Source of the DNA: Clostridiales bacterium
Lineage (GTDB): Bacteria; Bacillota; Clostridia; DUOD01
Assembly (NCBI GenBank): GCA_012838995.1
Contig: DUOD01000018.1
Location: 1-22,205 of the forward strand
Direction: 5' to 3'
DNA length: 22,205 nt
In this document: positions 1,169 through 22,205 of the stretch, piece after piece
Layout of the letters: each line of letters opens with the position of its first letter
How positions within the stretch are numbered: position 1 is the first letter of the stretch
The notes under the pieces: generated by a model
The model's database searches: none
The model's input: the letters and a program-made list of their open reading frames with translations, nothing else
What the model was told of the DNA's origin: nothing
Made by a program: the position numbers and the translations under genes

Positions 1169-1206
1169 ACGTTGACCGAAATATCCTTTAAAAAGGAGGA
1201 ATAGCT

Positions 1207-1566
1207 GTGATCAAGAGGAAAAACAGATATTGCTTTGTAATCGAACTCAACGAAGATCAAGTGGACGACTACGTAGAACTTCACAAAAATCCCTGGAGGG
1301 AAACCCTTGAAGGCTTAAAGGCAGCAGGGGCCGACGAACTGTTGATATACAGGTATAAAAACTTTTCCATTCTCTTCTATGAGTGCGATGATATAAACGA
1401 AGTGTATAGAAAATGGGGTGCAACCGAAACTTGTAAGAAGTGGAATGCAAGGCTTGCAAAGGCTTACAAAGTTACGCCCAGCATCGACGGCTCCGATGAT
1501 GTAGAAACCCTTGAAAAGATCTTCGACTTAAATCAACAATTAGCGGGCAAACTGGAACAATACTAA
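1207..1566 (+). CDS. rhaM: L-rhamnose mutarotase (RhaM/YiiL) family protein
   Basis: 119 aa with a GTG start 7 nt after AAGGAGG. The pattern HKNPWRE..L..AG...LIYR......LFYE......W.....CKKW matches my recollection of E. coli RhaM (HNPIWPE...AIYL...LF...E..W...C.RWW). Confidence 0.7.
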   Translation: MIKRKNRYCFVIELNEDQVDDYVELHKNPWRETLEGLKAAGADELLIYRYKNFSILFYECDDINEVYRKWGATETCKKWNARLAKAYKVTPSIDGSDDVETLEKIFDLNQQLAGKLEQY

Positions 1567-1680
1567 AGACGCTGCCAAAGGATTCCCTTTGCGCTTAAAG
1601 ACGGGCATAGCCCTATGCTCAAACCGGTTTTGAACATTGTAAATCTTTTAATAAAAAAATAAAAAAACGGAGGGAATGAA

Positions 1681-2826: not shown

Positions 2827-2845
2827 TATCAAATAAGCTTGGTGT

Positions 2846-2875
2846 ATGTGGTGGGGGGAAGGCCTCCCACCACAT
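2846..2875 (+). terminator. GC-rich hairpin after the M24-like gene (terminator or attenuator candidate)
   Basis: atgtggtgggg-ggaaggcc-tcccaccacat gives a stem of about 10 bp. It is followed by ttataaata, a weak T-tract. Confidence 0.4.
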
Positions 2876-3017
2876 TATAAATAGTAGGACTTATCTACAT
2901 GCCTACTTTTCAAAGGCAGGCTAATATTATAAGCCCCGTGGAGGGAATGGGGATATACGCTTGCGACAAGATAATCACCACAAATTCTTAAATACTAATA
3001 ACGATGGGAGATTAGAT

Positions 3018-6360: not shown

Positions 6361-6377
6361 AAATATGAAGAAGACAT

Positions 6378-6417
6378 CGGGGTTGAATAAATCTTTATTC
6401 AACCCCGAAGTATTTTT
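6378..6417 (+). terminator. Intercistronic stem-loop plus T-tract between the SBP and ATPase genes (partial terminator/attenuator)
   Basis: Perfect 13-bp stem cggggttgaataa-atct-ttattcaaccccg (6378-6407), followed by aagtattttt. This arrangement is common in ABC operons to raise SBP stoichiometry. Confidence 0.65.
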
Positions 6418-6440
6418 AAACTGGGGGCGATGTTGTCGAT

Positions 6441-7943
6441 ATGGGTTCTTTAATATTAGAGGCAAAAAATTTGTATAAATCTTTTGGTGCTGTGCAGGCT
6501 CTAAAAAACGTAAGTTTTGAGGTGGCGCCTGCCGAAATACATTGTCTAGTTGGTGAAAACGGCTCAGGAAAGTCTACATTTGTAAAGACCGTTGCCGGTG
6601 TACATCCACCGGATTCGGGTGAAATAATACTAAACGGCAACTCCTATCCTAAGGTTAACGTTAGAGAGGCCATAAAGGAAGGTATTCAGGTAATTTACCA
6701 GGACTTGTCACTGTTTCCTTCCATGACCGTGGCGGAGAATATTGCAACCAATAGGATGATAGCCGAAAACAGGCGTTTTATTAATTGGAAAGAAATAAGG
6801 GAGATTGCTGCGAAGCAGCTAGAAAGAATAGGCGTTTCTTTGGATTTGGACGAAGCCGTAGAAAATTTATCCGTTGCCAATAGGCAACTTGTAGCCATTT
6901 GTAGGGCACTAAGTCTGGATGCAAAGCTGATTTTCATGGACGAACCTACAACGGCATTAACCAAAACCGAAGTTGACAGGCTCTTGAATATAGTTTTGGA
7001 TCTAAAGAGCAAGGGCATTTCGGTTGTCTTTATAAGTCATAAACTTGATGAAGTTATGGAAGTAGCCGATTTGGTTTCCATCTTTAGAGACGGTGAAAAA
7101 GTTGGTGACTTCCCAAGCTCTGAAGTAAACGAAAAAATGCTGGTTTACCACATGACCGGACGAAAGGTCGAATATCCGAGATATAACAGAACCTATAAGG
7201 ATGACACACCGGTACTGGAAGTGAAAAATCTTACCAGCAACGGTAAATATGAGGATGTAAGCTTTACGGTAAGAAAAGGGGATATATTGGGATTGACCGG
7301 ACTTCTGGGAGCCGGAAGGACGGAACTGGCCTTAACCCTTTTTGGTCTGAATCCACAAGATTCAGGAAAGATTATATTGGAAGGAAAGGAACGAAAGTTC
7401 ACTACACCCTATCAAGCAATTAAATCCGGAATATCCCTGGTTCCGGAAAACAGACAAACTCAGGGCTGTTATATGAACAAGAGTATAACCGATAATGTTG
7501 CGGCCCCGATATTGGATAGGATGGCAAATGGTGGGGGCGTATTGAATGTCAATAAGATGAAGGAGCATGCAGAGGATACCGTAAAGACACTTAGGGTGGT
7601 TACAGCGGGTATATCCACTGAACTCCAGAATTTATCCGGTGGTAATCAACAGAAGGTAGTATTGGGCAAATGGATTGGAACCAATCCCAAAGTATTGATT
7701 CTTGACTCTCCTACGGTAGGTGTTGACGTAGGATCGAAGGAAGAAATTTACCAGCATATACAGAAATTCGCAGCACAGGGAACTGCGGTAATCCTGATTT
7801 CTGACGAAATACCGGAAATACTTGCTAACTGTAACAAACTAATCGTTATGAAAAAAGGAAAAGTCGTTGGTCGTTTAGAAAGTGACGATCTAAATGTTGC
7901 TGACGTTAGAGACAGAATTCACGCATTAATGGATTCAAATTAA
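6441..7943 (+). CDS. Sugar ABC transporter ATP-binding protein with tandem ABC domains (RbsA/RhaT-like, CUT2)
   Basis: 500 aa. Walker A is GENGSGKST, the second domain has GLLGAGRTE, the signature is LSGGNQQK, and Walker B sites are IFMDEPT and LILDSPT. Confidence 0.9.
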   Translation: MGSLILEAKNLYKSFGAVQALKNVSFEVAPAEIHCLVGENGSGKSTFVKTVAGVHPPDSGEIILNGNSYPKVNVREAIKEGIQVIYQDLSLFPSMTVAENIATNRMIAENRRFINWKEIREIAAKQLERIGVSLDLDEAVENLSVANRQLVAICRALSLDAKLIFMDEPTTALTKTEVDRLLNIVLDLKSKGISVVFISHKLDEVMEVADLVSIFRDGEKVGDFPSSEVNEKMLVYHMTGRKVEYPRYNRTYKDDTPVLEVKNLTSNGKYEDVSFTVRKGDILGLTGLLGAGRTELALTLFGLNPQDSGKIILEGKERKFTTPYQAIKSGISLVPENRQTQGCYMNKSITDNVAAPILDRMANGGGVLNVNKMKEHAEDTVKTLRVVTAGISTELQNLSGGNQQKVVLGKWIGTNPKVLILDSPTVGVDVGSKEEIYQHIQKFAAQGTAVILISDEIPEILANCNKLIVMKKGKVVGRLESDDLNVADVRDRIHALMDSN

Positions 7944-7960
7944 AAAGGGGAGACAGAAAA

Positions 7961-8986
7961 ATGAAATCTAATGCTATCAAGAAATTTTTCAGTAAAACAG
8001 AAGGCTATATTCTGTTGATAGTAATAGTGTACTGTATTATCGTAGCCGCTGTAAACCCCAACTTTATGACCCCAGGCAACTTCCTTGACCTAATCCGTTC
8101 GTCATCCTGGTATTGGATATTGGGATTTGGTGTGTTGCTGGTGTTACTTTCGGGGGGGATAGATGTTTCATATACGGCTATAGCTATTTGTAGTGGATAT
8201 GTATCTGCTTGTGTTATTCAGCGTACGGGAATAGAGAACCTGGCCTTTGCCTTCTTTATTGCAATTTTAATAGGCCTTTGGTTCGGCGCTATTAACGGAT
8301 TTTTAATACACTACTTTAGGCTGCCTACCCTTATTGCAACTTTAGGTACAAAGACAATTTTTATCGGTATTATGGCGGCGCTTGTAGGTGTAGAAGCTAT
8401 AAATACAGACCACTTACCCGCTGTATTTAAGGATTTCGGTTTGGCAAAACTATTCACTGTACCAACTGAAACGGGTGCGGAATACGGCCTTTCGGTATTC
8501 TTTATTCCACTGGTGATCTTAGGTATATTAACGTGGTTTATACTGTATCGCACTCAAATCGGTAGGAGCGTCGTTGCCCTTGGCAATTCGGAAGTATCGG
8601 CCGAGCGTGCGGGCTACAACCTGTTTAAGACTCGTATGTTTATATATATGTACGTAGGAGCCTTAGCCGCCGTGGCAGGTGTAATTGCCATTTCAGACGT
8701 TGCTTGGATTGCACCTCTCTCAAGTACAATGATACGAGGAACCGAGCTGACCATTATTGCAGCATTAATTATAGGCGGTGTAAAGCTGACAGGTGGAGAA
8801 GGTACGGTATTTGCTTCGATTATTGGATTGTTACTTGTAAGACTGTTTGAAACAACACTCATATTCCTCGGATTAACTTCATCATGGCAGAACTTCTTTA
8901 CCGGATTGGTATTCGTAGCCAGCTTGTCGGTGACATCGCTACAGAGGGCAAGAAAGAGACGTCGTATGCTCTTATTTGAAGAATAA
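7961..8986 (+). CDS. Sugar ABC transporter permease (RbsC/RhaP-like)
   Basis: 341 aa, AGGGGAG RBS and a multi-TM hydrophobic profile. The GGIDVS motif is typical of CUT2 permeases. Confidence 0.85.
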   Translation: MKSNAIKKFFSKTEGYILLIVIVYCIIVAAVNPNFMTPGNFLDLIRSSSWYWILGFGVLLVLLSGGIDVSYTAIAICSGYVSACVIQRTGIENLAFAFFIAILIGLWFGAINGFLIHYFRLPTLIATLGTKTIFIGIMAALVGVEAINTDHLPAVFKDFGLAKLFTVPTETGAEYGLSVFFIPLVILGILTWFILYRTQIGRSVVALGNSEVSAERAGYNLFKTRMFIYMYVGALAAVAGVIAISDVAWIAPLSSTMIRGTELTIIAALIIGGVKLTGGEGTVFASIIGLLLVRLFETTLIFLGLTSSWQNFFTGLVFVASLSVTSLQRARKRRRMLLFEE

Positions 8987-9002
8987 TGGGGGTAGACTAG
9001 TT

Positions 9003-10049
9003 ATGAAGAAAGGAATTAATAGTTTTGGAGATAGATTATTACAATCAGAAGATGTTAACGTACTAATATTGACAATTACTTTCGTTGCTGTTTTAGTGGT
9101 TTTGTCCATAGTTTTAGGTGGAACGTTTCTATCTGCCGCAAACTTCCAATCAATGGGCTTTCAGATACCTGAGTTTGGTCTCTTATCCCTTGCAATGTCC
9201 TTGTGCATGCTTGCCGGCGGGATAGATCTTTCTATAGTAGGAAACGCCAATTTATCAAGCGTATTAGCCGCTTATACACTACTGGCCCTGTCGGAAAACG
9301 GCGGTAACCCGATTATTGCAATAATTGTTGCAATCGTTGTCGGGTTGGTGGTTGGTGTAGGATGCGGCCTGCTGAACGGCTTACTGATTGCTAAGGTATC
9401 AATCCTTCCCATACTGGCTACGCTGTCGACTATGATTTTATACGACGGTATTGCCATGGCTCTAACGGACGGAAAAACCGTTTTGGGCTTCCCCTTGGAG
9501 TTTTCCAAGATGGCCATAGCCAAGGCGGGCGGTATACCCGGTGTTTTCATAGTATTTGTGGTAGTAGCGATAATAATCTCTTTAGTACTGACCCGTACGT
9601 TCTTTGGTAAGAATATTTACCTGTACGGTGCCAACAAAACAGTATCACTGTTTTCAGGAATAAGGGTAAATTCCCTCATACTGAAAACCTATGCGATATC
9701 CGGGTTGTTTGCCGGTATTGCCGGGTTGATGTTAATGGCCCGTGTTAACTCAGCCAAGGTTGGATATGGTGATACCTACCTACTCCAAACCATGTTGGTT
9801 AGTATCCTCGGCGGGGTAAGTCCTACCGGTGGTAAGGGTAAAGTTTTAGGCGTATTCTTGGGAATTCTTGTTCTGCAAATGCTGCAGAGCGGCTTTACGT
9901 TGCTGGGTGTCGAGCCGTACTTTAGGAACTTCATCTGGGGCGTTGTCCTAATCGGTGTAATGATTGCAAACTTCTACATCGAAAGAAGCAAGAAGAAGAT
10001 CAAAAGGCCAAAAGCTACAGCCAAGGAAGCCCAACAACCAGTAGCATAA
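9003..10049 (+). CDS. Second sugar ABC transporter permease (RbsC/RhaQ-like)
   Basis: I prefer the ATG at 9003 to the overlapping TTG at 8976. It is multi-TM, has the GGIDLS motif and ends in a basic C-terminal tail. Confidence 0.85.
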   Translation: MKKGINSFGDRLLQSEDVNVLILTITFVAVLVVLSIVLGGTFLSAANFQSMGFQIPEFGLLSLAMSLCMLAGGIDLSIVGNANLSSVLAAYTLLALSENGGNPIIAIIVAIVVGLVVGVGCGLLNGLLIAKVSILPILATLSTMILYDGIAMALTDGKTVLGFPLEFSKMAIAKAGGIPGVFIVFVVVAIIISLVLTRTFFGKNIYLYGANKTVSLFSGIRVNSLILKTYAISGLFAGIAGLMLMARVNSAKVGYGDTYLLQTMLVSILGGVSPTGGKGKVLGVFLGILVLQMLQSGFTLLGVEPYFRNFIWGVVLIGVMIANFYIERSKKKIKRPKATAKEAQQPVA

Positions 10050-10421: not shown

Positions 10422-11381
10422 ATGGAAAATATTGATAGGGTTAATATGCTGGTTAACATATCGAGGTTATATTATGAACATGATTATAGCCAGCAGCAAA
10501 TAGCGGAAAAACTGGGTTTATCACGGCCTTATGTATCAAAATTGATAAAAGAAGCCAGAAATGCAGGTATTGTTAATATAGTCATCAATGATCCTAATGA
10601 AGCTGAAACCGAAATAGAGGCCAAAATAAGAAAGAAATTCGGTCTTGAAAAAGTCATAGCAGTGCCTCTTAATAAGCCTAGCAGACAAAATATTTTGGAC
10701 AAGTTAGGGGTCGCTGCATCTAAATTTTTAAATTCTATAGTAAAAGACGGAGATATTATAGGCGTTACCTGGGGTGCTACCTTATATGCTTGTTCCCGCA
10801 ATTTAATCCCCAGAGAGGATATAAAGGACATAACAGTTGTCCAGATATGCGGGGGCGTAAGCAAGTTGGACAAAAATATATATGCTACTGAAATACCTAA
10901 GAAGTTTTCTGAAGTTTATCATGGGGTTCCCTATATTTTACCCCTACCGGCCATCCTCGACGATATAAAGGTAAAAAATGCAGTACTCCATGACAAAAAC
11001 ATCAATGACGTATTGAACATAGCAAGGCAGGCCAACATCAACATCTTTACCATGGGCACCTTCGGTTATGAGAGTGCCCTGACCAAGGCAGGCTATATTA
11101 GCAAGGAAGAGGTGGACCGACTGCATCTTAAGGGGGCAGTGGGGGACATTTGCGCAAGAATCATAGATATCAATGGAAACATATGCGACGAAAAGCTTAA
11201 CGAAAGGACCGTTGCCATAGACCTGGATGAACTAAAACTCAAAGATTGGAGAATAGCAGTAGCTACAGGTAGCAACAAGGTAAAATGCATCATCGGTGCT
11301 CTACGGGGAGGGTACGTAAACGTACTCATTACCGATGAGGAGACAGCTCTAGAAATATTAAGTATTATAGATAAGGAGTAA
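10422..11381 (+). CDS. SorC/DeoR(Bsu)-family transcriptional regulator (N-terminal HTH plus sugar-phosphate-binding domain)
   Basis: 319 aa. The HTH is YSQQQIAEKLGLSRPYVSKLIKEAR. GVTWGATL, VQICGG and the C-terminal ITDE are typical of the SorC sugar-binding domain. Its stop codon is 2 nt before the pduL start. Confidence 0.85.
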   Translation: MENIDRVNMLVNISRLYYEHDYSQQQIAEKLGLSRPYVSKLIKEARNAGIVNIVINDPNEAETEIEAKIRKKFGLEKVIAVPLNKPSRQNILDKLGVAASKFLNSIVKDGDIIGVTWGATLYACSRNLIPREDIKDITVVQICGGVSKLDKNIYATEIPKKFSEVYHGVPYILPLPAILDDIKVKNAVLHDKNINDVLNIARQANINIFTMGTFGYESALTKAGYISKEEVDRLHLKGAVGDICARIIDINGNICDEKLNERTVAIDLDELKLKDWRIAVATGSNKVKCIIGALRGGYVNVLITDEETALEILSIIDKE

Positions 11382-11383
11382 CA

Positions 11384-12022
11384 ATGATTAAGGATGCAAT
11401 AAAGAGAATCATAACAAATGAAATACTAAAGGCAACCATAAAAAAATATGGATTATACTTCTTACCGGCTGCTGTTTCCAATAGGCATATTCATCTCTCC
11501 AAGGAAGATAAAGAGAAACTTTTCGGAAGAGGGTATCAATTAAGGCCAATAAAGGAGCTTTCCCAACCCGGGCAATATGCCTGTGAGGAAAGGGTCACCA
11601 TAATAGGCAAAAAGGGTACCATCGAAAATGTAAGAGTATTGGGCCCCGAGAGAAAGGAAACCCAGCTTGAGGTATCCGTAAGTGACTGTTACACATTAGG
11701 GATAAAGCCGGTAATAAGGATGTCGGGGGATTTGGATAACACCCCGGGCATAACCATAGAAGGCCCTAAGGGTCGGGTAGAACTTCAAAAAGGTGTAGTA
11801 GTTGCAGCCCGCCATCTTCACATTTCCGAAGAGGAAGCAAAACTTTACGGTCTTAAAGACGGCGATGTGATAAGGGTGAAGAAATCGGGAATAAGGGAGA
11901 CGATTTTTGGAAACGTGCTGGTTAGATCAGGTTCCGGTCACAGGTTGGAATTGCATTTTGACATTGAAGAAGCCAATGCAGCGGGTATTAAAAACGGAGA
12001 CCTGCTATTAATAGAAAAATAA
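11384..12022 (+). CDS. pduL: Phosphotransacylase PduL (BMC-associated PTAC) with an N-terminal amphipathic helix
   Basis: 212 aa. It has the two diagnostic repeats SNRHIHLS and ARHLHIS. The N-terminus KDAIKRIITNEILKATIKK resembles an encapsulation peptide. Confidence 0.85.
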   Translation: MIKDAIKRIITNEILKATIKKYGLYFLPAAVSNRHIHLSKEDKEKLFGRGYQLRPIKELSQPGQYACEERVTIIGKKGTIENVRVLGPERKETQLEVSVSDCYTLGIKPVIRMSGDLDNTPGITIEGPKGRVELQKGVVVAARHLHISEEEAKLYGLKDGDVIRVKKSGIRETIFGNVLVRSGSGHRLELHFDIEEANAAGIKNGDLLLIEK

Positions 12023-12041: not shown

Positions 12042-12764
12042 ATGGACGTAGATCTGTTAATTGATGAAATTACAAAAAATGTTGTTTCACGACTTAAGGA
12101 CGAAATGTGCATAAGGGCTTTTGATGAAAGCAAAAGCGAAAACCGAATACTGGTTCTGCTGCCCGAGAATGTTTTAAGTATTGGGAAATTTCTCAACTAT
12201 GTTAAGGGTAAGTATGAAGATGGAGAACTTCTGGTAGCAGGTAATGTAGAAACCTTGGACGGAGTTTTAAAACCCGAACTGAGCAACAGCATAACATGCG
12301 TTAATATACAGGACAAGCATATACGGCATAAAGTGGGCAGCATTTTTGATAGTTATAAGGAGGTATGCTGTATAGCTCCCGGCATAAAACTTCTGGAGAA
12401 TATTGCCAAGGGAGACGATTCCCAATTTATCGAATACCTTTTGCTGCAAGGCATACTTCATAAAAAGCCCACGACAATTTATGTCGACTACATGCCCAAC
12501 GGCATTTCGTCCGATGGTTTGATGGGTAAGGTATCAACCTTGTTCAGAGAAATAGAAGCATCGGGCATTAAAGTGGAAAACATAGACAGGCAAACCGATG
12601 CAGTTATCAGTGCTGAAAAAGTATACCAAGACGGCCTGATAACCGAGCAGGATATCGACGAAATGTGGGCAAACGGGGTTACCGAGGTGGATTGCTCAAG
12701 ATGCATAGTAACGCCCCTTGCCAAGGACAGGGCCAAGGAACTGTCCATAACACTGAAGTATTAA
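12042..12764 (+). CDS. BMC-associated protein of unknown function with an encapsulation-peptide-like N-terminus
   Basis: 240 aa with an AGGAGA RBS. The N-terminus is MDVDLLIDEITKNVVSRLKDE. The C-terminal segment LITEQDIDEMWANGV...CIVTPLAKDRAKELSI is a short module I recall recurring in BMC loci. No catalytic motif recognised. Confidence 0.6.
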   Translation: MDVDLLIDEITKNVVSRLKDEMCIRAFDESKSENRILVLLPENVLSIGKFLNYVKGKYEDGELLVAGNVETLDGVLKPELSNSITCVNIQDKHIRHKVGSIFDSYKEVCCIAPGIKLLENIAKGDDSQFIEYLLLQGILHKKPTTIYVDYMPNGISSDGLMGKVSTLFREIEASGIKVENIDRQTDAVISAEKVYQDGLITEQDIDEMWANGVTEVDCSRCIVTPLAKDRAKELSITLKY

Positions 12765-12983
12765 CCAATGAAGCATGGATATAGGATGGTTAGCCTTAAA
12801 GAAGTAAGGAGTATGGCATAAAACCATGGACATGCCGAAAAATCGGCAATTAACAAGCGGTGTTAAACATTAAGTTAAAATTTATGTATTATCTATAAAG
12901 TATGGCATGAAAGCATTACACCAACAGACGAAAACAAATAAAAGCAATATCCTATTTAGCAAATAGACAGGGTGGTGTTAAAA

Positions 12984-14429
12984 ATGGCGATAACGAAGGA
13001 AAGAATTGAAGAAATAATTAGGGAGATGAACATGCACTTTGGCTCCAGTGTGGGGAGTACTACAACAGGTGTAAGAAGCAGTTCAATCTCGAGCCAGCCA
13101 AGAGGTCAGCTGGGGATCTTTTCAGATGTGGAGGATGCAATAGCGGCAGCAAAGGCCTCCCAAATAGAGCTAATTGCATTGGGTCTGGAAAAGAGACGCA
13201 AGATAGTAGAGGCCATGCGAAAAGCGGCTATTGATAATGCAGAGCATCTTGCGATAATGGCAGTTGAAGAAACAGGCTTTGGCAAAGTGGAACACAAAAT
13301 CGCAAAAAACTTGCTGGCCGCTGAAAAAACTCCGGGTATTGAGGATTTGGTTTCAACCACATATACCGGCGATGACGGGCTAACCCTTATTGAGGGAGCA
13401 CCCTTTGGTGTGATAGGTGCCATAACACCGTCGACAAATCCAGCAGCTACTATAATAAACAACGGTATAAGCATGGTAGCGGCTGGAAATTCTGTAGTTT
13501 TTAACCCCCATCCCGGTGCAAAAGAGGTTACCAATGAAGCCATTAGAATACTAAACAAAGCAATTATGAGTGCCGGTGGGCCTAGCAATGTGTTATGCAG
13601 TACCGAAAACCCTACAATAGAGTCCAGTAATACGATAATGAAACATAAAGATATTGCCATCCTTGTGGTAACCGGAGGAGAAGGCGTGGTAAGGGCGGCC
13701 ATGAACAGCGGCAAGAAGGTTATAGCTGCAGGACCGGGCAACCCGCCGGTGATAGTTGACGATACCGCAGATATAAAGAAGGCTGCAAAGGATATTGTGG
13801 ACGGAGCAAGCTTTGACAATAATATTCTCTGTATAGCCGAGAAGGAAGTTTTCGTATTTAGAAATGTTGCAGACCGGCTAATAGAAGAGATGATAAAAAA
13901 CGGGGCTTACCTTGCAAACAAGTCCACAGGAGAAATAGAAAAGATCAAGAACACCGTTTTTGAAACCAAAGGCGGCAAGACTGTGTTAAATAAAAAATTT
14001 GTCGGTAAAAGTGCCAATTATATCTTAAGCAAGAGTAATATAGATGTAAACGGCGAATACAAGCTGATCATTGCTGAAGTAGATGCAACCCATCCCTTTG
14101 TACTTACTGAAATGTTAATGCCCGTTTTACCCATTGTAAGGGTAGACAGCATAGACGAAGCAATACAGAAGGCGCTGGATGCTGAGCAAGCCAATAGACA
14201 TACAGCTCTCATGCACTCGCAAAATGTAACTAACCTTACAAAGGCTGCCAGGGCTCTTAACACTACAATCTTTGTAAAGAATGCACCGTCTTATGCCGGA
14301 TTGGGATATCAAGGTGAAGGATACACAACACTGACCATAGCAACGCCTACAGGGGAAGGGTTAACCTCTGCACGCACTTTTACCAGACAGAGAAGATGTA
14401 CATTGTATGGTTCCTTTAGGATTATTTAA
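12984..14429 (+). CDS. CoA-acylating aldehyde dehydrogenase (PduP/EutE-like) with N-terminal encapsulation peptide and Ser/Thr/Gly linker
   Basis: I prefer the ATG at 12984 (AGGGTGGTG RBS) to the GTG at 12972. The catalytic Cys lies in FDNNILCIAEKE and the C-terminus reads TFTRQRRC. The N-terminus KERIEEIIREMNMHF plus ..QPRGQLGIFSDVEDAIAAA parallels Salmonella PduP (..QPQGKGIFQSVSEAIDAA) as I recall it. Confidence 0.85.
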   Translation: MAITKERIEEIIREMNMHFGSSVGSTTTGVRSSSISSQPRGQLGIFSDVEDAIAAAKASQIELIALGLEKRRKIVEAMRKAAIDNAEHLAIMAVEETGFGKVEHKIAKNLLAAEKTPGIEDLVSTTYTGDDGLTLIEGAPFGVIGAITPSTNPAATIINNGISMVAAGNSVVFNPHPGAKEVTNEAIRILNKAIMSAGGPSNVLCSTENPTIESSNTIMKHKDIAILVVTGGEGVVRAAMNSGKKVIAAGPGNPPVIVDDTADIKKAAKDIVDGASFDNNILCIAEKEVFVFRNVADRLIEEMIKNGAYLANKSTGEIEKIKNTVFETKGGKTVLNKKFVGKSANYILSKSNIDVNGEYKLIIAEVDATHPFVLTEMLMPVLPIVRVDSIDEAIQKALDAEQANRHTALMHSQNVTNLTKAARALNTTIFVKNAPSYAGLGYQGEGYTTLTIATPTGEGLTSARTFTRQRRCTLYGSFRII

Positions 14430-14460: not shown

Positions 14461-15792
14461 ATGGCAAAAAGTTTTTATGATAGGATTTTTGATGCAGGAG
14501 TCATAGGAGCAGGCGGCGCCGGGTTTCCTACCCACATAAAAGTAAATGCTAAAGCCGATGTGGTATTGGCCAACGGTGCAGAATGCGAGCCCTTACTAAG
14601 GGTTGACCGTCGCATAATGGAGCACTACCCTGATAAGGTGGTAGAGGGTCTCCAAGTGGCGATGAGGGTAAGCGGTGCGGCCAAGGGATATATATGCTTG
14701 AAAGCTAAGTATAAATTGGCAGTGGAACGACTACAGAATGCCATAGGCAATAAAAAGAAAATTGAGTTGTTTTTGCTGGATAACTATTATCCAGCGGGTG
14801 ACGAACAGCAGATTGTACATGAGGTTACCGGCAAAGTAGTACCTCCCGGCGGGATACCGCTGGATGTAGGAGCGGTGGTGTGCAACGTAGGTACCTTGGT
14901 CAATATAGCAGATGCAGTTGAAGACATCCCGGTGACCCATAAATTAGTTACAGTTACCGGTGAGGTAAAAAACCCCATTACAATAAAGGTGCCGGTGGGA
15001 ACGCCCATGAAGCTACTGATAAAGGAAGCCGGCGGTCCCGATGAAGGCCAAGGATATGCATTAATAGAAGGCGGGCCGGCCATGGGCAAGGTCCAGGAGG
15101 ACTGGTCATCACCCGTTAAAAAGACTACCGGGGGACTGATAGTACTTCCGTCCAACCATTTGGTTATAAGGAAGAAAGAGGGACCCTCGGAATCGGATTA
15201 CAGACTGACCAAATCGGTATGCTGCCAATGTAGTTATTGCACTCAACTGTGTCCAAGGAACAACATAGGATTGGGTGTACAACCCCATAAGGTAATGAGG
15301 GGTATAGGATACGGCAGAGGTGATGCAATAGGCAATATAAATGACGTATTTTCATGCTGTGACTGCGGATTATGTACCTATTATGCCTGCTACATGGGCC
15401 TCAAACCGGGTACCATGGTTACCACCATTAAGAATGCCCTTCTCAAGAAGGGAATAAGACCGCAGAAAGAAAGAGTAAAAGAAGTTAATCCGGCATGGGA
15501 ATACAAAAAGGTGCCAACCGAAAGATTTATTCAGAGACTTGGGTTGAGCAAGTATGACGTCGATGCTCCTATGGTGGACAAAGAAATCGCTGTAGATAAG
15601 GTAAGGATCCCTCTCAAACAGCATATTGGTGTACCGGCTACACCGGTGGTTGAAGTGGGAGCGGATGTCCAGGTCGGTGATCTAATCGGTGCGGTTGAAA
15701 AAGACAAGGTAGGGGCTAATGTCCATGCCAGCATAGATGGCAAAGTCACCTTTGTTTCCAAAGAATTAATTGAAATTTCTGCAAGAGGGTAG
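14461..15792 (+). CDS. pduS: PduS-like / RnfC-family flavo-iron-sulfur oxidoreductase
   Basis: 443 aa with an AAGGAG RBS. The nucleotide-binding region is GAGGAGFPTHIK...ANGAECEPLL. Two Cys clusters are present, CCQCSYCTQLCP and CCDCGLCTYYAC. The C-terminal segment IPLKQHIGVPATPVV..GD.V.VGDLIG resembles an RnfC barrel-sandwich domain. Confidence 0.8.
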   Translation: MAKSFYDRIFDAGVIGAGGAGFPTHIKVNAKADVVLANGAECEPLLRVDRRIMEHYPDKVVEGLQVAMRVSGAAKGYICLKAKYKLAVERLQNAIGNKKKIELFLLDNYYPAGDEQQIVHEVTGKVVPPGGIPLDVGAVVCNVGTLVNIADAVEDIPVTHKLVTVTGEVKNPITIKVPVGTPMKLLIKEAGGPDEGQGYALIEGGPAMGKVQEDWSSPVKKTTGGLIVLPSNHLVIRKKEGPSESDYRLTKSVCCQCSYCTQLCPRNNIGLGVQPHKVMRGIGYGRGDAIGNINDVFSCCDCGLCTYYACYMGLKPGTMVTTIKNALLKKGIRPQKERVKEVNPAWEYKKVPTERFIQRLGLSKYDVDAPMVDKEIAVDKVRIPLKQHIGVPATPVVEVGADVQVGDLIGAVEKDKVGANVHASIDGKVTFVSKELIEISARG

Positions 15793-15804: not shown

Positions 15805-16350
15805 ATGGATGCATTAGGAATGATTGAAATAAATAGTGTAGCAGCTGGTATAGAAGCCGGAGACGCAATGTTAAAGACTGCAGGGGTTACTTTGGTTAAC
15901 GCGCAGCCGGTATGCGCGGGCAAATATATTGTGACCGTTCAAGGTGCTGTTGCGGAGGTTACCAGTTCTGTCAACGCAGGAAAGGAGAGCGCCGGAGATT
16001 CTCTGGTAGACAGCTTCATTATACCCAACGTACACCCCCAAGTGTTTTCAGCATTAGCCTGTGCTTCGGATATAGATGTCGACAATGCCGTAGGAGTAAT
16101 AGAGACATTCTCATTGTCTGCCTGTGTTGTAGCTGCTGATGCTGCCGTTAAAGCAGCTGAGGTTGATCTGCTGGAAATAAGACTTGGGATGGGGCTCGGC
16201 GGCAAATCCTTCGTAATACTAAGTGGAGACGTAAGCGCAGTTAGACATTCCGTTGAATCAGCCGAAAGCAGTATCGGAATAGAGGGGTTGGTAGTACGTA
16301 CTGTTGTTATACCTTCACCCCACAAAGATATTGTTAAGGCTTTGATATAG
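15805..16350 (+). CDS. pduT: Tandem-domain BMC shell protein (BMC-T), PduT-like, with the candidate Fe-S-ligating Cys
   Basis: 181 aa with two BMC domains, [22 protein letters not shown] and [22 protein letters not shown]. Cys37 in PVCAGKY aligns with TICPGKF (Cys38) of Salmonella PduT as I recall it. Confidence 0.8.
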
Positions 16351-16387
16351 ATACCCAATATTAATGCGTGAGGTGATGAAGCAGGTT

Positions 16388-16669
16388 ATGATCAAAGAAG
16401 CATTAGGTATGGTTGAAACAAGAGGTTTAGTAGGAGCTATAGAGGCTGCCGACGCCATGGTTAAAGCGGCAAGTGTCAAACTAATAGGCAAAGAAAAGGT
16501 AGGCGGTGGACTGGTTACCGTAATGGTAAGAGGTGATGTTGGAGCGGTAAAGGCAGCCACCGAAGCCGGAGCAGCAGCTGCAAAAAGGGTTGGCGAGCTT
16601 GTATCCATGCACGTTATTCCAAGGCCTCATAGCGATGTGGATGGCATTTTACCAAAGGCATCTGTGTAA
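16388..16669 (+). CDS. BMC-H hexameric shell protein (PduA/EutM-like), pore motif KVGGGL
   Basis: [25 protein letters not shown]...[21 protein letters not shown]...VHVIPRPH. I chose the start at 16388 by analogy with the PduA N-terminus. In-frame ATGs at 16364 and 16376 cannot be excluded. Confidence 0.85.
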
Positions 16670-16802
16670 GCCGGCAAGGCGAATAGCTAAACATTTTTCC
16701 AGGTAGGGGCCATTCTAAAATTAAAGAATTTATAAAGTTTTGCAACAATGGTTTAAGCACAGGACATATCCATGTCTTAATTTTTGAAAATGTTGATAAT
16801 TA

Positions 16803-16823
16803 CAATGTATTAAATATACATTG
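16803..16823. promoter_or_regulatory. 8-bp inverted repeat CAATGTAT-taaat-ATACATTG in the spacer between the two BMC-H genes (operator candidate)
   Basis: Read directly. It overlaps a possible sigma-A-like promoter, TTGATA-N16-TATACA. Confidence 0.3.
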
Positions 16824-16889
16824 GATTAAATGCAACCCAAAATAAAAACAAAAATTATTACAACAAAAATTGAAAGGAGAAAGTGGTCA

Positions 16890-17186
16890 ATGATTGATAA
16901 GGAAGCATTAGGTATGGTTGAAACAAGAGGTTTAGTAGGAGCAATTGAGGCTGCTGACGCTATGGTAAAAGCAGCAAACGTAAGATTGATAGGAAAGGAA
17001 AAAATAGGCAGCGGTCTCGTAACCGTTATGGTAAGAGGCGACGTTGGAGCAGTTAAGGCATCCACCGAAGCCGGTGCTGCAGCTGCAAAAAGGGTTGGAG
17101 AACTTGTATCCGTACACGTCATCCCAAGACCTCATACAGATGTTGAGCAGATTCTGCCCAAGGCAACTTGCAGCGATAGCGAATAA
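16890..17186 (+). CDS. Second BMC-H hexameric shell protein (PduA-like), pore motif KIGSGL
   Basis: I prefer the ATG at 16890 (AAAGGAGA RBS at 16873-16880) to the track start at 16830. It is about 80% identical by eye to the upstream paralog and shares an identical 41-nt DNA block with it. Confidence 0.9.
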
Positions 17187-17369
17187 GTTTGTATATAGTC
17201 AGTATAGTTGGCAATACAGTGTTTACAATTAAAAATGCAACCTATCTGGGCTTTGAATCTTTAACAGTCCGGCAGTTGGATTGTAAATTTTTACCGCGCA
17301 CTGACGGTTTTAAAACAGCTGACAATATATGTGTGGGACAAAGTGGTTATATAGAGACATTTAGTTAGA

Positions 17370-17443
17370 GGACGCCAGCAGGATGGCGATAAACATTACC
17401 CGAGCAGCTATAGGTGCCGTGATTGTTGGTGTCCTTTTTATTT
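17370..17443 (+). terminator. Long imperfect hairpin followed by T5AT3 between the shell genes and deoC (terminator/attenuator candidate)
   Basis: ggacgccagcag (17370-17381) pairs with ttgttggtgtcc (17423-17434), giving 12 bp with 4 G-U pairs and a 41-nt loop. tttttattt follows. An alternative local hairpin, cgcca-gcagga-tggcg, competes for the 5' arm. Confidence 0.4.
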
Positions 17444-17496
17444 CAAACTCGATAAAGTAGATACAATCTATATACAAAAGGGTGATTGATTTGGAA

Positions 17497-18279
17497 ATGG
17501 ACAAACTTATAGAAAAACTAACCGAAGAGATATACAAAAAAGTATTGGGTGAAATTCAAAAAACCGGAAGTTTTGACAGTATTCCTGTTAGCACTCCCAG
17601 TGGCGGGGATCGTGGTCTAGCCAGCATGATAGATCATACCCTTTTAAAGCCCGACGCAACCGTGGAAGATGTTAAAAAAGTATGCGAGGAAGCAAAACAA
17701 TACGGATTCGCGTCCGTGTGCATAAACCCCGGATATGTACCCTTGGCAGTACAAACACTGAGGGGAAGTAATGTAAAAACTTGTACGGTAATAGGTTTTC
17801 CCTTGGGAGCTACAACCACAAAGACAAAGGTTGAAGAAACAAAAGAGGCATTAGAAAACGGTGCCAAGGAAATTGACATGGTAATAAATGTGGGTGCTTT
17901 AAAATCCGGCGATATAGATCTCGTAAAAAATGATATAGAAGAGGTAGTAATAGCAGCCAAAGGTAGAGGAATTGTTAAAGTTATCATAGAAACTTGCTTG
18001 TTAACCGATGACGAAAAGGTAAAGGCTTGTACAATAGCCAAGGCAGCTGGAGCGGATTTCGTAAAGACTTCTACAGGCTTTAGCACCGGCGGCGCAACGG
18101 TAGAAGACATTAAATTAATGAGGGAAGTAGTAGGGCCGGACATGGGAGTTAAAGCCTCTGGAGGTATCCGTGATTACGAGACTGCTATGGCGATGATAAA
18201 TGCAGGGGCCAATAGAATCGGAGCCAGCGCTTCAGTGGCTATAGTAAACAAACAAAAAACATCTAAAAAAGGTTACTAG
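17497..18279 (+). CDS. deoC: Deoxyribose-phosphate aldolase family class I aldolase (DeoC/DERA) with a ~40-aa N-terminal extension
   Basis: I prefer the ATG at 17497 (AAGGGTGA RBS) to the GTG at 17482. The core starts at [12 protein letters not shown]. The Schiff-base region DFVKTSTGF and VKVIIET are present. The extension reads [40 protein letters not shown]. Confidence 0.85.
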
Positions 18280-18302: not shown

Positions 18303-19364
18303 GTGGCTCAAAAAATGAGAGCAGTTAGGTTGTTTGCCCCTGGCGACGTAAGGTGTGTAGAAGTTGATATTCCAAAAATCGAACAGCCTGATGATGTAAT
18401 AGTAAAGGTAAAGTCCTGCGGAGTATGCGGGTCTGATATAGCACGAGTTATGGAAAAAGGTGCCTATCGATATCCTATTACCATAGGTCATGAATTTGCA
18501 GGCGAAGTAGCGGAAGTAGGCAGTGACGAATATGGCATAGAAGTGGGAGACAGGGTAGCTGTAATGCCCCTTATACCCTGTGGCAAGTGTAAGTACTGCG
18601 CCATCGGCGAGTTTGTGTTGTGTGACGAGTATCAGTACTACGGTTCTCGAATTGACGGTGCCATGGCCGAGTACATCAGGGTAAAGGCCCACAACATTTT
18701 GAAAATGCCCTTAGGCGTGGACTATGAGGCCGGATCCATGGTTGATCCCACATCTGTAGGGCTCCATGCAGTGAGAAAGACCAAAATAGAGCCCGGCCAA
18801 AGCGGCGTGGTTTTTGGTTTGGGACCCATCGGTCTCATCACCATGCAGTGGTTAAAGGCTTTAGGCTGTGATAAGGTATTTGCCGTTGATATTTTCGATG
18901 ATAAATTGGATTTAGCTGACCGACTGGGTGCAGATTATTGCATTAACGGCAAGAAACAGGATGCAGTAGAAGCAATAATGGAATTAACCTCAGGCGAAGG
19001 TGTGGATATATCTATCGAACTGGCAGGAAGTATAATTACCCAGGATCAAGCTATACGAGCAACTAAAAAGATGGGTACAGTAGTTTACTGTGGTATTTCT
19101 TATGACGACCTTGTTTTATCCAACGCTACAGTAAACAGGATTTTAAGGGGAGAGCTGACAATTAAGGGTTCTTGGAATTCTTCCATTGCACCGCTACCCA
19201 TCAATGAATGGGAAAGCTCACTTAAATTTATGAAAAACGGTAAGGTGAAAGTAAACCCGCTGATATCACATAGATTTAGGCTGGAAGAATGCCAAGAGTG
19301 TTTCAACATGATGTACCATAAAACCGAAGTGTTTAACAAGGTACTGTTTAAACCCGAGGACTAA
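18303..19364 (+). CDS. Zn-dependent MDR-family dehydrogenase (sorbitol / threonine / galactitol-1-P dehydrogenase-like)
   Basis: GTG start 6 nt after GGAGGG. Catalytic motifs are CGVCGSD and GHEFAG, the structural Zn site is CGKCKYCAIGEFVLC, and the Rossmann motif is VFGLGPIGL. Confidence 0.8.
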   Translation: MAQKMRAVRLFAPGDVRCVEVDIPKIEQPDDVIVKVKSCGVCGSDIARVMEKGAYRYPITIGHEFAGEVAEVGSDEYGIEVGDRVAVMPLIPCGKCKYCAIGEFVLCDEYQYYGSRIDGAMAEYIRVKAHNILKMPLGVDYEAGSMVDPTSVGLHAVRKTKIEPGQSGVVFGLGPIGLITMQWLKALGCDKVFAVDIFDDKLDLADRLGADYCINGKKQDAVEAIMELTSGEGVDISIELAGSIITQDQAIRATKKMGTVVYCGISYDDLVLSNATVNRILRGELTIKGSWNSSIAPLPINEWESSLKFMKNGKVKVNPLISHRFRLEECQECFNMMYHKTEVFNKVLFKPED

Positions 19365-19418: not shown

Positions 19419-20456
19419 ATGTTAGCTTATGTATATGACGAGCAAGGAAAATTGTCGCTAAAGGATATGCCCCGTCCTACTGCTAAAAATAATACAGCCG
19501 TAATAAAGGTTGGGGCCTGCTCCATATGCGGTACGGATTTTAGAACATATATGCACGGTAGCAGTAAAATTACACCGCCTAGGATCATTGGCCATGAAGC
19601 CGTAGGAACGATAGTTGAAGTAGGCAGGGATGTTATCGGATTCAGTAAAGGCGAAAGGGTTGCCGTTGCCCCCGCTATTGGATGCGGGGAATGTTACCCT
19701 TGCCAAAGCGGTTATCCCAATATGTGCGATGACCTTCAAACGATAGGCTTTCAATTTGACGGCGGCTTTGCGGAATATATGGAAATCCCCGAAATAGCCT
19801 TTAAGATGGGTAATGTAAATAAACTAGGCAGCTTAATCAGCGATGAAGAAGCCAGCCTTGCAGAACCCACGGCTTGTGTGGTAAATGCCCAGGAGTTTCT
19901 GAATATTAAGAAGGGCGATTACGTGGCCGTATTCGGATCAGGATTTATTGGCTGCATGCATGCCGAACTTGCATTTAGGAGCGGGGCTTCCAAGGTGATT
20001 ATAATCGAGGTTTCCGAAAAGAGAATAAAGCAGGCCGAGGAACTTGTTCCCGGAATTATTACTATAAATTCGACGGAAAAGGATCTTATGACCGAAATAA
20101 TGGACATAACCGAGGGAAGAGGAGTAAATGTTGCAATAACGGCATGTTCAGTCGGCAAGGTCCAGGAAGATGCACTGAATATCGCTTCTAAAAGGGGAAG
20201 GATAAGCCTGTTTGGAGGAATCCCCGGCAGTGGCAAGGGATATATCGACAGTAACGTTATACACTACAAAGAACTGTCGGTGTACGGCGTTCATGCATCA
20301 ACACCTCTCCAGAACAAGAAAGTATTGGACTGGATATCCACGGGCAGTTTGAAGGTGGACAAATATGCAAAAAATATTTATCCCCTAAGGGATATTGAAA
20401 AGGCCTTTGAAGCAATTAAAGGCGGGGACGTTTTAAAGGCAATCATCAAGCCATAA
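19419..20456 (+). CDS. Second Zn-dependent MDR-family dehydrogenase (polyol or sugar-phosphate dehydrogenase-like)
   Basis: Motifs CSICGTD, GHEAVG, CGECYPCQSGYPNMC and VFGSGFIGC. Confidence 0.8.
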   Translation: MLAYVYDEQGKLSLKDMPRPTAKNNTAVIKVGACSICGTDFRTYMHGSSKITPPRIIGHEAVGTIVEVGRDVIGFSKGERVAVAPAIGCGECYPCQSGYPNMCDDLQTIGFQFDGGFAEYMEIPEIAFKMGNVNKLGSLISDEEASLAEPTACVVNAQEFLNIKKGDYVAVFGSGFIGCMHAELAFRSGASKVIIIEVSEKRIKQAEELVPGIITINSTEKDLMTEIMDITEGRGVNVAITACSVGKVQEDALNIASKRGRISLFGGIPGSGKGYIDSNVIHYKELSVYGVHASTPLQNKKVLDWISTGSLKVDKYAKNIYPLRDIEKAFEAIKGGDVLKAIIKP

Positions 20457-20510: not shown

Positions 20511-21992
20511 ATGGAAAAATTTCTAATATTTGACCTTGGGGCCGGTAGCGGCAGGGCAATAGTTGGGGATTTTGATGATAACAAAATTTCCTTCGAAGAA
20601 ATTCATCGTTTTGACAACCGCCCGGTTTATGCTGCGGGAGAATTATTCTGGGATATACTACGCCTTTACTCGGAAATTAAGAGAGGAATAGAAATTTGCA
20701 GCAAGAAATACGATAATGTACGTTCACTGGCAATCGATACCTGGGGATGCGATTTCGGGCTAATAGACAAAAACGGCAGGCTAATTTGCAATCCTGTAAA
20801 TTATAGGGACAGGAAGAGACATGAACGTGCCGAAAAGCTTCATGAAATAATACCAGAAAAGGAATTATTCCAACTATCCGGCGGACCGCTGGATAGGATA
20901 ATGGGTATTTACCAGTTGTTTTCACTGAAATATGAAAATGCCGTTGAATATCAAAACGCCCATAGACTCCTCATGATACCCGATATTTTCAACTATTTCT
21001 TGACTGGAGAGGCAGTTAACGAATTTACCAATGCTACAATGACCCTCATGTGTAACCAGAATGAAAGAAAGTGGGAAGATAAGATAATATCCAAATTGGG
21101 CTTTACAAGGGAAATTTTCTCAGACCTTAATGAGCCCGGAGTTGTTATTGGGAAATTAACTAAATCCGTATGCGATGAGCTGAGCACCCAAGCTATTCCG
21201 GTTGTCTTACCTCCCACCCACGATACCGCATCTGCTGTAGCAGGCATTCCCGTGGCCGACTACAATAAACCTTGGGCCTTCATAATTCTGGGCACCTGGT
21301 GTATAGGCGGAATAGAAACTTCTGCTCCGGTAATTAATGACAAGGTACTGGAATCAGGATTTGGAAACGAGGGCGGAGTAGAAGGAAAGAACATGCTGCT
21401 TAAGAATACAACGGGTATGTGGCTCAAGCAGCAGTGTAGAGCATCCTGGATGAAGTCTGCCCAGAGGGAGATTTCCTGGGAGGAAATTAACCAGGCAGCA
21501 AACAGCGCCCAGTCTACAGATTCCTATATAGATGTGGACGAAGAGCGTTTCGGCAAGGTTCAGCCTGATATGCCGGGCGTAATTGCCGAGTATTGCAGAG
21601 AAACGGGCCAGAAAGTTCCCTCAACCATGGGTGAAATTACCCGATGTCTCAATGAAAGCCTTGCACTGAAGTTTAGACATAATCTAACCATGCTTCAGGA
21701 ATTTAGCGGCCAGAAACTTGAAGTCCTACATCTGGTTGGTGGAGGAATTAGGGATGAGCTATTATGCCAGCACATAGCCGATGCTCTGGGCATAACAGCC
21801 ATTGCCGGACCTACAGAAACTTCATCTGCAGGCAACCTAATATTCCAACTCAAGGCCGGTGGATACATTAAGGGCGTACAAGAGGGAAGAAAGATATGCA
21901 GGAATTCCTTTGAAATTAAGGAATACGAGCCCCATGACACCGATGTGTGGGACGAGAAGTACGAGAAGTATTTGAAGCTGTTGGAAAGGTAA
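20511..21992 (+). CDS. FGGY-family carbohydrate kinase, rhamnulokinase-like
   Basis: 493 aa. The N-terminus FDLGAGSGRAIVG...EIHRFDNRPV...LFWDILRLYSEIKRGI resembles RhaB-type kinases. The C-terminal motif is GGGIRDELLCQHIADALG. Confidence 0.75.
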   Translation: MEKFLIFDLGAGSGRAIVGDFDDNKISFEEIHRFDNRPVYAAGELFWDILRLYSEIKRGIEICSKKYDNVRSLAIDTWGCDFGLIDKNGRLICNPVNYRDRKRHERAEKLHEIIPEKELFQLSGGPLDRIMGIYQLFSLKYENAVEYQNAHRLLMIPDIFNYFLTGEAVNEFTNATMTLMCNQNERKWEDKIISKLGFTREIFSDLNEPGVVIGKLTKSVCDELSTQAIPVVLPPTHDTASAVAGIPVADYNKPWAFIILGTWCIGGIETSAPVINDKVLESGFGNEGGVEGKNMLLKNTTGMWLKQQCRASWMKSAQREISWEEINQAANSAQSTDSYIDVDEERFGKVQPDMPGVIAEYCRETGQKVPSTMGEITRCLNESLALKFRHNLTMLQEFSGQKLEVLHLVGGGIRDELLCQHIADALGITAIAGPTETSSAGNLIFQLKAGGYIKGVQEGRKICRNSFEIKEYEPHDTDVWDEKYEKYLKLLER

Positions 21993-22088: not shown

Positions 22089-22205
22089 ATGAAGGACAAA
22101 ATGAAAGCTGCAGTGTTTGAGGGCGAAGGAGTATTGAAGATTAAAGAAGTCGATGTCCCCAAGATCGAGAAAGCCGACGAACTGATCGTAGAGGTAGAAA
22201 TGTGC
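22089..22205 (+). CDS. Third Zn-dependent MDR dehydrogenase, 5' fragment truncated by the window end
   Basis: ATG 9 nt after GGAGGTG. The 39 codons read MKDKMKAAVFEGEGVLKIKEVDVPKIEKADELIVEVEMC, a typical MDR N-terminus ending at the catalytic-Zn Cys. Confidence 0.7.
   Translation, partial: MKDKMKAAVFEGEGVLKIKEVDVPKIEKADELIVEVEMC

Follow-up and report, generated by a model that had tools for sequence, protein, structure and literature searches.

Introduction

Bacterial microcompartment (BMC) loci in which a DeoC-like aldolase is encoded together with RpiB, PduL, PduS and an aldehyde dehydrogenase were named Sugar Phosphate Utilizing (SPU) in 2014 (PMC4207490), and by 2021 the type had been expanded to more than 280 loci from 26 phyla, divided into seven subtypes (PMC8217296), of which SPU4 is the one reported in gut Clostridia (PMC8156839). 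The aldolase in question, a deoxyribose-phosphate aldolase (DERA, the product of deoC), is also the subject of this work: it is encoded on the forward strand of a 22,205-nucleotide stretch (positions 1 to 22,205 of contig DUOD01000018.1 from the Clostridiales bacterium assembly GCA_012838995.1; hereinafter, the window), and its residues 1–40 very probably constitute an SPU-type encapsulation peptide, that is, a helix of about 21 residues followed by a disordered linker of about 16–18 residues.

Encapsulation peptides have been defined as an amphipathic helix of 15–20 aa with a poorly conserved linker (Kinney 2012/Aussignargues 2015; PMC4594438); they bundle and drive the condensation of cargo, in vitro even without shells (PMC12339742), and are also reported to bind between shell tiles (PMC11157265). 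For SPU DERAs in particular, Dwyer, Sutter and Kerfeld (2024) described an N-terminal amphipathic-helix extension on all of them and its absence from non-BMC DERAs, reported that its removal solubilised a recombinant SPU DERA, and pointed out that gene callers often miss the extension by choosing short starts (PMC11585597). The same work gives at least three genes for BMC-P (pentamer) shell proteins in SPU loci and the absence of RPI from SPU5 and from 11 of the 29 SPU4 loci (PMC11585597), while satellite DeoC genes with extensions resembling encapsulation peptides have been documented in genomes that have their BMC loci elsewhere (PMC8217296). An extension on the signature enzyme of SPU is, therefore, already published, and the window provides a further example of it. 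Nor is an aldolase as such an unusual enzyme class for a metabolosome, as an earlier, sequence-only reading of this stretch had supposed, since DeoC/DERA has defined SPU from 2014 onwards (PMC4207490) and other BMC types have as signature enzymes class II aldolases whose encapsulation peptides are C-terminal (PMC4594438).

The locus in the window resembles SPU loci in having a true DERA (PF01791) extended by an amphipathic N-terminal helix, together with an acylating aldehyde dehydrogenase, a PTAC-type phosphotransacylase, a PduS homologue and both BMC-H and tandem BMC-T shell proteins (three proteins with PF00936). It differs from them in lacking RpiB, triosephosphate isomerase and an intact triplet of BMC-P (PF03319) genes, and in that its DeoC gene is followed by those for two Zn-dependent dehydrogenases and a rhamnulokinase-like kinase, with a ribose-type ABC importer further upstream. 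As RPI is missing from SPU5 and a part of SPU4, the missing RpiB does not exclude SPU here; its PTAC, PduS and tandem BMC-T would fit SPU1, 4 or 7, with SPU4 as the probable guess. The extension of the SPU6 DERA, by comparison, is about 70 residues long and includes two beta strands of low confidence, a minor difference from that of the window DeoC, which has about 40 residues and no predicted strands.

Among other cargo enzymes, the peptides of PduD, PduP, EutC and PduL (PMC4594438, PMC12339742) show the same succession as the window DeoC, i.e., an amphipathic helix of 18–21 residues, a linker and the catalytic domain, and such classical peptides share with the DeoC helix the hydrophobic residues at i, i+1, i+4, i+8 and i+9 as well as acidic–basic pairs at i/i+4. 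The Pdu/Eut peptides belong, however, to other enzyme families and have no demonstrable sequence homology to the one discussed here; targeting by a DERA peptide would be presumed by analogy. The PVM and GRM5 compartments (PMC4594438, PMC4207490) have an aldehyde-generating signature aldolase with an encapsulation peptide, as here, but theirs is a metal-dependent class II enzyme with a C-terminal peptide, whereas the window encodes a Schiff-base class I enzyme of the DeoC family with an N-terminal one. Housekeeping DeoC/DERA proteins (TIGR00126; PDB 8qps, 5dbu and 6d33), lastly, have a catalytic domain of the same length, but start 6–9 residues before the IDHT motif with no helix or linker, both of which are present in the window DeoC.

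Results

Translation of positions 17497–18279 gives a protein of 260 aa, whose residues 1–40 correspond to positions 17497–17616 and whose catalytic TIM barrel (residues 41–260, with the stop codon) occupies positions 17617–18279. Going by its domain match and catalytic residues, the latter is an ordinary, intact DERA: residues 41–250 cover profile positions 2–210 of 211 in the TIGR00126 deoC equivalog at 297 bits (cutoff 117), PDB DERAs 8qps and 5dbu are matched with E of about 1e-86, the identity of the catalytic domain to crystallised DERAs is, estimated by eye from the printed alignments, roughly 65–70%, and D127, K161, K190 and K219 are invariant in the homologue alignment (A1). The boundary of the extension is placed similarly by each of the comparisons, as the Pfam DeoC match begins at residue 44, the conserved L-A-x-M of canonical DERAs corresponds to residues 41–44, and the solved structures 8qps, 5dbu and 6d33 (220–230 aa) align from their own residues 3–11 to query residues 39–41 onwards. 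The extension of about 40 residues claimed in the sequence-only reading thus agrees with the alignment to canonical DERAs, with Pfam and with TIGR00126, and the extension sequence it quoted is that of the translation, save for two omitted residues (TG).

AlphaFold2, run on DeoC with an alignment of 35 sequences, yielded a model with a mean pLDDT of 90.6, in which residues 2–22 form a helix (pLDDT of about 80–84), residues 24–37 fall below a pLDDT of 50 and the TIM barrel exceeds 90. The encapsulation-peptide helix can accordingly be delimited to residues 1–22 (17497–17562) and the flexible linker to residues 23–40 (17563–17616). The highest 18-residue helical hydrophobic moment of the entire protein (0.511) starts at residue 5; L4, I5, L8, I12, Y13, V16, L17 and I20 make up the apolar face of the helix, and acid–base pairs at i/i+4 are K7–E11, E10–K14 and E11–K15. 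Ser, Gly and Pro account for 10 of the 18 linker residues. Both the amphipathic helix and the Pro/Ser/Gly flexible linker, as they had been described from the letters alone, are therefore seen again in the predicted structure and composition. The helix, at 21 residues, is slightly longer than the 15–20 aa of the definition, which has also been noted for SPU DERAs (PMC11585597). What distinguishes encapsulation peptides elsewhere is thereby present here as well: an N-terminal position on an enzyme encoded in a BMC locus (genes for BMC-T and two BMC-H proteins lie 0.3–1.7 kb upstream), an amphipathic helix, and, before the catalytic domain, a linker of low conservation in which small and hydrophilic residues abound.

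Among the best 120 database homologues of the window DeoC, the number of residues preceding IDHT is bimodal, with 53 proteins having 24 or fewer (mostly 5–9) and 66 having 25–59, 65 of the latter falling between 35 and 59. A strict helix pattern is matched by 54 of the 66 long forms and by 0 of the 53 short ones; by eye, the helix is also present in 11 of the 12 remaining long forms, the exception being P0044. The called N-terminus of this protein, MTKEASSMVETKGFVGSVEAAD, resembles the start of a BMC-H domain fused to the DeoC catalytic domain, which could be due to a miscalled gene, to a fusion or to the junction of a deletion. In an alignment of 65 long forms, the mean pairwise column identity is 0.49 for the helix, 0.12 for the linker and 0.73 for the catalytic domain; helix positions 3–13 reach a consensus of 66–97%, and the linker columns are gapped, with the extension totalling from 35 to 58 residues. 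When the 24 helix codons were compared with those of seven homologous loci, the nucleotide mismatches at codon positions 1, 2 and 3 numbered 71, 44 and 102, and this pattern, with the third position the most changed, points to the helix region being translated and under purifying selection. In most of the loci without shell genes, the farthest possible ATG lies 6–9 codons before IDHT, and upstream of this short start the frame usually stays open for no more than about 10–30 codons. Bimodal lengths, the conservation of the helix, the distribution of mismatches over codon positions and the closed upstream frames of shell-less loci together argue that the extension is a translated part of the protein.

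As for where translation begins, a Shine–Dalgarno-like GGGTGAT (17480–17486, forward strand), which resembles the GGAGGTG located 9 nt before the ATG of the Zn-dependent dehydrogenase gene at 22090, is suitably spaced from both the ATG at 17497 and an in-frame TTG at 17491, two codons upstream of it (TTG and GAA, 17491–17496). The N-terminus resulting from the TTG agrees with the family consensus MEIEKLIEKI, and the real start may hence be at 17491, in which case the extension would comprise residues 1–42; it is kept either way.

Many of the extension-bearing homologues (P0003, P0008, P0019, P0029, P0033, P0037–P0039 and P0047) end in a C-terminal tail, C(I/V)xCGxCSQxCPTGNVxIIKNxY, which represents a CxxCxxCxxxCP motif of the 4Fe-4S type with Pfam Fer4 matches (alignment A1, columns 285–311). 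The window DeoC shares the terminal GY with these homologues, but is devoid of their Cys tail.

The genomic surroundings of the extension were compared over 80 genome loci of close DeoC relatives, the 10-kb flanks of which were searched with the window's own proteins. BMC shell genes were found within 10 kb in eight of the loci (L001, L002, L028, L045, L052, L069, L070 and L072), and in each of these eight the DeoC has an N-terminal helical extension (e.g., MELDKLIEKIAEEVYRKI and MQMEALVEQITNQIMEQL), those of Elusimicrobia being longer, at about 115 residues; the canonical short start prevails in the loci without shell genes. Three further extension-bearing homologues, which were found by exact protein look-up and are the nearest such relatives (L081, L084 and L085), have a BMC-P gene directly upstream of DeoC; in two of them (L084 and L085), DeoC is then followed by the same Zn-dependent dehydrogenase/FGGY kinase/ABC-transporter module as in the window, and in the stretch available for L081 the dehydrogenase and the kinase follow, with the transporter not seen.

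The closest relative by catalytic domain (P0002, 85% identical) has a called N-terminus, MNTTKNTTKKTGIGEK, that contains no helix. On both contigs encoding it (L082 and L083), the SorC regulator gene is represented by two out-of-frame fragments (L082 220–352; L083 793–925) directly upstream of DeoC, and the first Zn-dependent dehydrogenase gene by one fragment (L082 1173–1262; L083 1746–1835) directly downstream, and it seems from these sequences that the whole block from PduL to the shell genes was deleted together with the helix. Such a joint loss agrees with the helix being of use only where there is a shell. The predicted structure, the conserved helix and unconserved linker, the link to neighbouring shell genes and this deletion relative are the evidence on which the assignment of residues 1–40 as an encapsulation peptide is founded.

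The helix has counterparts on other putative cargo of the locus, as PduL, the aldehyde dehydrogenase and a 240-aa microcompartment-associated protein each start with an N-terminal amphipathic helix. The last of these (12042–12764, forward strand; N-terminus MDVDLLIDEITKNVVSRL, similar to the DeoC helix) weakly matches TIGR02536 (“eut_hyp”) and was assigned to no family by a Pfam search; a word-based search retrieved a single relative, and a full HMMER search 135 representative clusters, with homologues encoded, among others, in the SPU loci L002 and L085. The N-terminal consensus of the family, ExLIxxITxEV, is close to that of the DeoC helix, EKLIEKITEEV, and a hidden Markov model (HMM) of the DeoC helix matches 21 of its 136 members, always within the first 25 residues; when run against the open reading frames of the window, the same HMM has the N-terminus of the 240-aa protein as its best non-self match, with an E of 0.47 that is not significant alone. 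That unrelated enzymes have this motif in common agrees with the current picture, in which encapsulation peptides form bundles and bring about the co-condensation of cargo (PMC12339742). The AlphaFold2 model of the 240-aa protein (pLDDT 87.5) consists of a helix at residues 3–29 and a Rossmann/flavodoxin-like domain, for which Foldseek returned weak matches to EpiD/UbiX-type flavoprotein folds (TM of about 0.45), and the protein carries a C-terminal ITPLAxD motif.

Extrapolating from work on other encapsulation peptides, a mechanism can be proposed in which the apolar face of the DeoC helix would bundle with the N-terminal helices of the aldehyde dehydrogenase, PduL and the 240-aa protein, and would also dock on the BMC-H/BMC-T shell from inside, so that the enzymes would condense and become enclosed. 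The aldehyde dehydrogenase would then turn the trapped acetaldehyde into acetyl-CoA, from which PduL would form acetyl-phosphate. Encapsulation in this organism, the binding partners and the substrate are what we infer by analogy with those systems.

Alternative Explanations

Several observations weigh against the residues being an encapsulation peptide that operates here. Shell targeting by the helix of SPU DERAs is itself argued by analogy, the published deletion having relieved insolubility and nothing else. In the shuffle test on residues 2–21, 746 of 20,000 shuffled sequences (a fraction of 0.037) reached or exceeded the observed hydrophobic moment, which is a modest statistic when taken alone; the amphipathicity is real, only moderately unusual by itself. 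The extension also occurs on three DeoC proteins whose genes have no shell gene in either 10-kb flank (L010 9977–10756, L023 9962–10732 and L044 9791–10669), which implies that the helix is not strictly tied to a neighbouring shell locus, and on two more with no shell gene on contigs that are too short to judge (L003 and L062). The neighbour-joining tree of catalytic domains cannot be had with fewer than 12 switches between the long and the short form, which could stem from repeated gain and loss or from miscalled starts; at face value they would speak against a single origin of the extension, although the short forms may be miscalled. Finally, no intact BMC-P gene was found in the 22-kb window by tblastn, with EutN, CcmL and eight SPU BMC-P proteins as queries, and, short of pentamer genes being present at another place, the compartment of this organism may be a defective one.

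The last point leads to an alternative that overlaps with the preferred explanation and is, in our view, unlikely, namely that the extension is an encapsulation peptide by descent that persists as a relic in a decaying locus, the compartment of which no longer closes. The three shell genes of the window (15805–17186) are followed, directly upstream of deoC, by a frameshifted remnant of a BMC-P (EutN/CcmL pentamer) gene (17189–17460, forward strand), which tblastn detects with the BMC-P proteins preceding DeoC in L084 (E=9e-7) and L081 (E=1e-4). Its N-terminal part, LYIVSIVGNTVFTIKNATYLGFESLTVRQLDCKFLPRTDGFKTADNICVGQSGYIETFS, is read in the frame of 17189 until a stop is reached at 17366, and its C-terminal part, LEDASRMAINITRAAIGAVIVGVLFISNSIK, is read from 17365–17457 in the frame of 17188. 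The remnant is 27–34% identical to its syntenic counterparts in L081 and L084, as opposed to about 70% for DeoC and theirs, and no other BMC-P is found in the 22 kb, when SPU loci normally have three (PMC11585597), as seen in L001 and L002, where three BMC-P genes adjoin DeoC. In addition, the close relative on L082/L083 is already without the entire shell block. Speaking against a relic are the intact reading frames and good family scores of PduL, the 240-aa protein, the aldehyde dehydrogenase, PduS, BMC-T, both BMC-H proteins and DeoC, as well as the circumstances that an error in a single base of the assembly could have produced the frameshift and that the pentamer genes may lie outside the window; the remnant is either a real pseudogene or a divergent gene with such an error. 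Taken together, the BMC-P frameshift and the P0002 deletion suggest that the lineage may be losing its compartment, which lowers confidence in the peptide being in use here, but leaves its identity as an encapsulation peptide unchanged.

These results also bear on how far the earlier proposal of a BMC cargo-type extension can be taken: it is sustained by the helix–linker architecture, its conservation and its association with shell genes, but the statement that it “directly supports” the aldolase as lumen cargo was too strong, since the shell set named in it (15805–17186) includes no pentamer gene, the only BMC-P in the window being frameshifted, and encapsulation is presumed from other systems. 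A regulatory RNA in the 310-nt gap upstream of deoC was rejected: Rfam had no match in the whole window, promoter and terminator scans stayed at background, and the gap proved to be the BMC-P remnant.

Still less probable, and by our estimate very unlikely, is that the translated helix works independently of a shell, as an oligomerisation or condensation, partner-binding or membrane tag of a cytosolic sugar-catabolic complex. Such a role would account for the three extension-bearing DeoC proteins devoid of nearby shell genes, one of which (L010) comes from Faecalicatena contorta, has LDDT in place of the catalytic IDHT motif and is followed by two RpiB genes, and another (L023) from a Christensenellaceae genome with the gene order SorC–ADH–ADH–DeoC; it would also be in line with the shell-free condensation of encapsulation peptides in vitro (PMC12339742). 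The presence of the extension in all eight of the shell-containing loci and of short starts in most of the shell-less ones, the documented satellite DeoC genes with an encapsulation peptide in genomes whose BMC loci are elsewhere (PMC8217296), and the loss of the helix along with the shell block in the closest relative all argue against it.

The weakest alternative, that the extension is an annotation artefact and that translation starts at Met44 (17626), leaving the upstream 43 codons as an untranslated leader, is extremely improbable and was rejected: the in-frame ATG does directly precede IDHT, and short starts are often chosen by gene callers for such genes (PMC11585597), but this start would truncate the fold within the L-A-x-M segment, which canonical DERAs, starting 6–9 residues before IDHT, include, the helix is conserved as protein in 65 homologues and shows a coding-type codon-position pattern, the upstream frame closes early in most of the shell-less loci, and the Shine–Dalgarno-like GGGTGAT serves 17491/17497, nothing comparable at a suitable spacing upstream of 17626 being found on reading the sequence. 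An internal start near the IDHTLLKP region, which would by the terms of the sequence-only reading have refuted its claim, is thus argued against by the sequence.

Locus Organisation

Everything on the forward strand between 10422 and the window's end belongs to a single catabolic microcompartment locus. It opens with a gene for a SorC-family regulator (10422–11381; Pfam Sugar-bind), which is closest to the DeoR of the Bacillus type (NF053881, 354 bits, below the cutoff of 420), followed by the PduL-type phosphotransacylase (11384–12022), with an N-terminal helix, MIKDAIKRIITNEILK, that has a hydrophobic moment of 0.48 and precedes a Pfam PTAC match at residues 30–203. Downstream of the 240-aa protein, the acylating aldehyde dehydrogenase (12972–14429; NF011927, 667 bits) begins with the helix ITKERIEEIIREM (moment 0.59) and a Ser-rich linker, the Pfam Aldedh match starting at residue 51, and a PduS-like flavoprotein/Fe-S protein (14461–15792; Pfam Complex1_51K, SLBB, Fer4_17 and RnfC_N) comes next. 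The shell genes encode a BMC-T protein with tandem BMC domains (15805–16350; two stretches matching Pfam BMC, E=3.9e-47), a BMC-H hexamer protein (16364–16669; E=1.3e-29) and a second BMC-H (16830–17186; E=9.6e-30, with the domain from residue 26). The listed open reading frame of the second BMC-H has a basic 20-residue start (16830–16889) that is absent from the first; judging by the sequence, its translation likelier starts at an internal ATG near 16890, which would set the two BMC-H genes about 220 nt apart.

Downstream of deoC lie the genes for two Zn-dependent dehydrogenases (18303–19364 and 19419–20456) and a rhamnulokinase-like FGGY kinase (20511–21992), followed by the first part (22090–22205) of another, third dehydrogenase gene of the Zn-dependent kind, to which the strong GGAGGTG ribosome-binding site mentioned above belongs. 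The module formed by DeoC, the two dehydrogenases and the rhamnulokinase-like kinase recurs in L081, L084 and L085, accompanied in the window (5257–10049, upstream of the BMC locus), L084 and L085 by an ABC importer of the ribose type; its dehydrogenase part is also found in the shell-less L005 and L023, with a weaker FGGY match in L005. On the 5' side of the importer (176–4178) are encoded two xylose-isomerase-like TIM-barrel proteins, an M24/creatinase-like protein and a RhaM-like mutarotase (1207–1566; Pfam rhaM, E=3.5e-16), and the surroundings of the latter, as far as the sequence goes, hint at an uptake route for a deoxy-sugar (rhamnose-like).

No credible tblastn match to RpiB (PF02502) was found in the window, a weak one (E=0.004) covering 31 residues on the antisense strand of the aldehyde dehydrogenase gene, and triosephosphate isomerase was likewise not found in the window; in the eight shell-containing loci, RpiB is always near DeoC. 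A SorC regulator, an FGGY kinase, an ABC transporter and a DeoC-family protein could also be read as an LsrF/AI-2 system, which was rejected because DeoC passes the DERA equivalog, the regulator has a better score as a DeoR-like protein than as LsrR, and the kinase a better one as rhamnulokinase-like than as LsrK.

Conclusions

As a published property of SPU DERAs recovered on one metagenomic contig, the extension is of little importance for new biology. Its value for annotation is that the start of deoC is to be kept at 17491 or 17497 rather than moved to Met44, and the locus labelled as SPU-type, and the comparative data add modest independent support to what has been described before, as the helix tracks shell genes across 80 loci, is lost jointly with them and has its motif repeated on a second, unrelated cargo family.

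The RpiB-less, sugar-importing arrangement and the frameshifted pentamer gene bear, in turn, on the substrates of SPU compartments and on how such loci decay. It is tentatively proposed, as a possibility well short of an even chance, that the window represents an SPU variant without RpiB and triosephosphate isomerase, whose compartment would process a sugar, (deoxy)sugar or polyol taken up from outside and would be in the course of being lost in the lineage. The parts of such a variant may include the DERA with its peptide, two Zn-dependent dehydrogenases of the polyol type, the rhamnulokinase-like FGGY kinase, sugar-isomerase-like TIM barrels, the mutarotase, the ribose-type ABC importer and the DeoR-like SorC regulator, and it may be one that the main texts of the published SPU descriptions do not single out. 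If this were true, the substrate of the variant's compartment would be an imported (deoxy)sugar or polyol, and not deoxyribose-5-phosphate derived from DNA.

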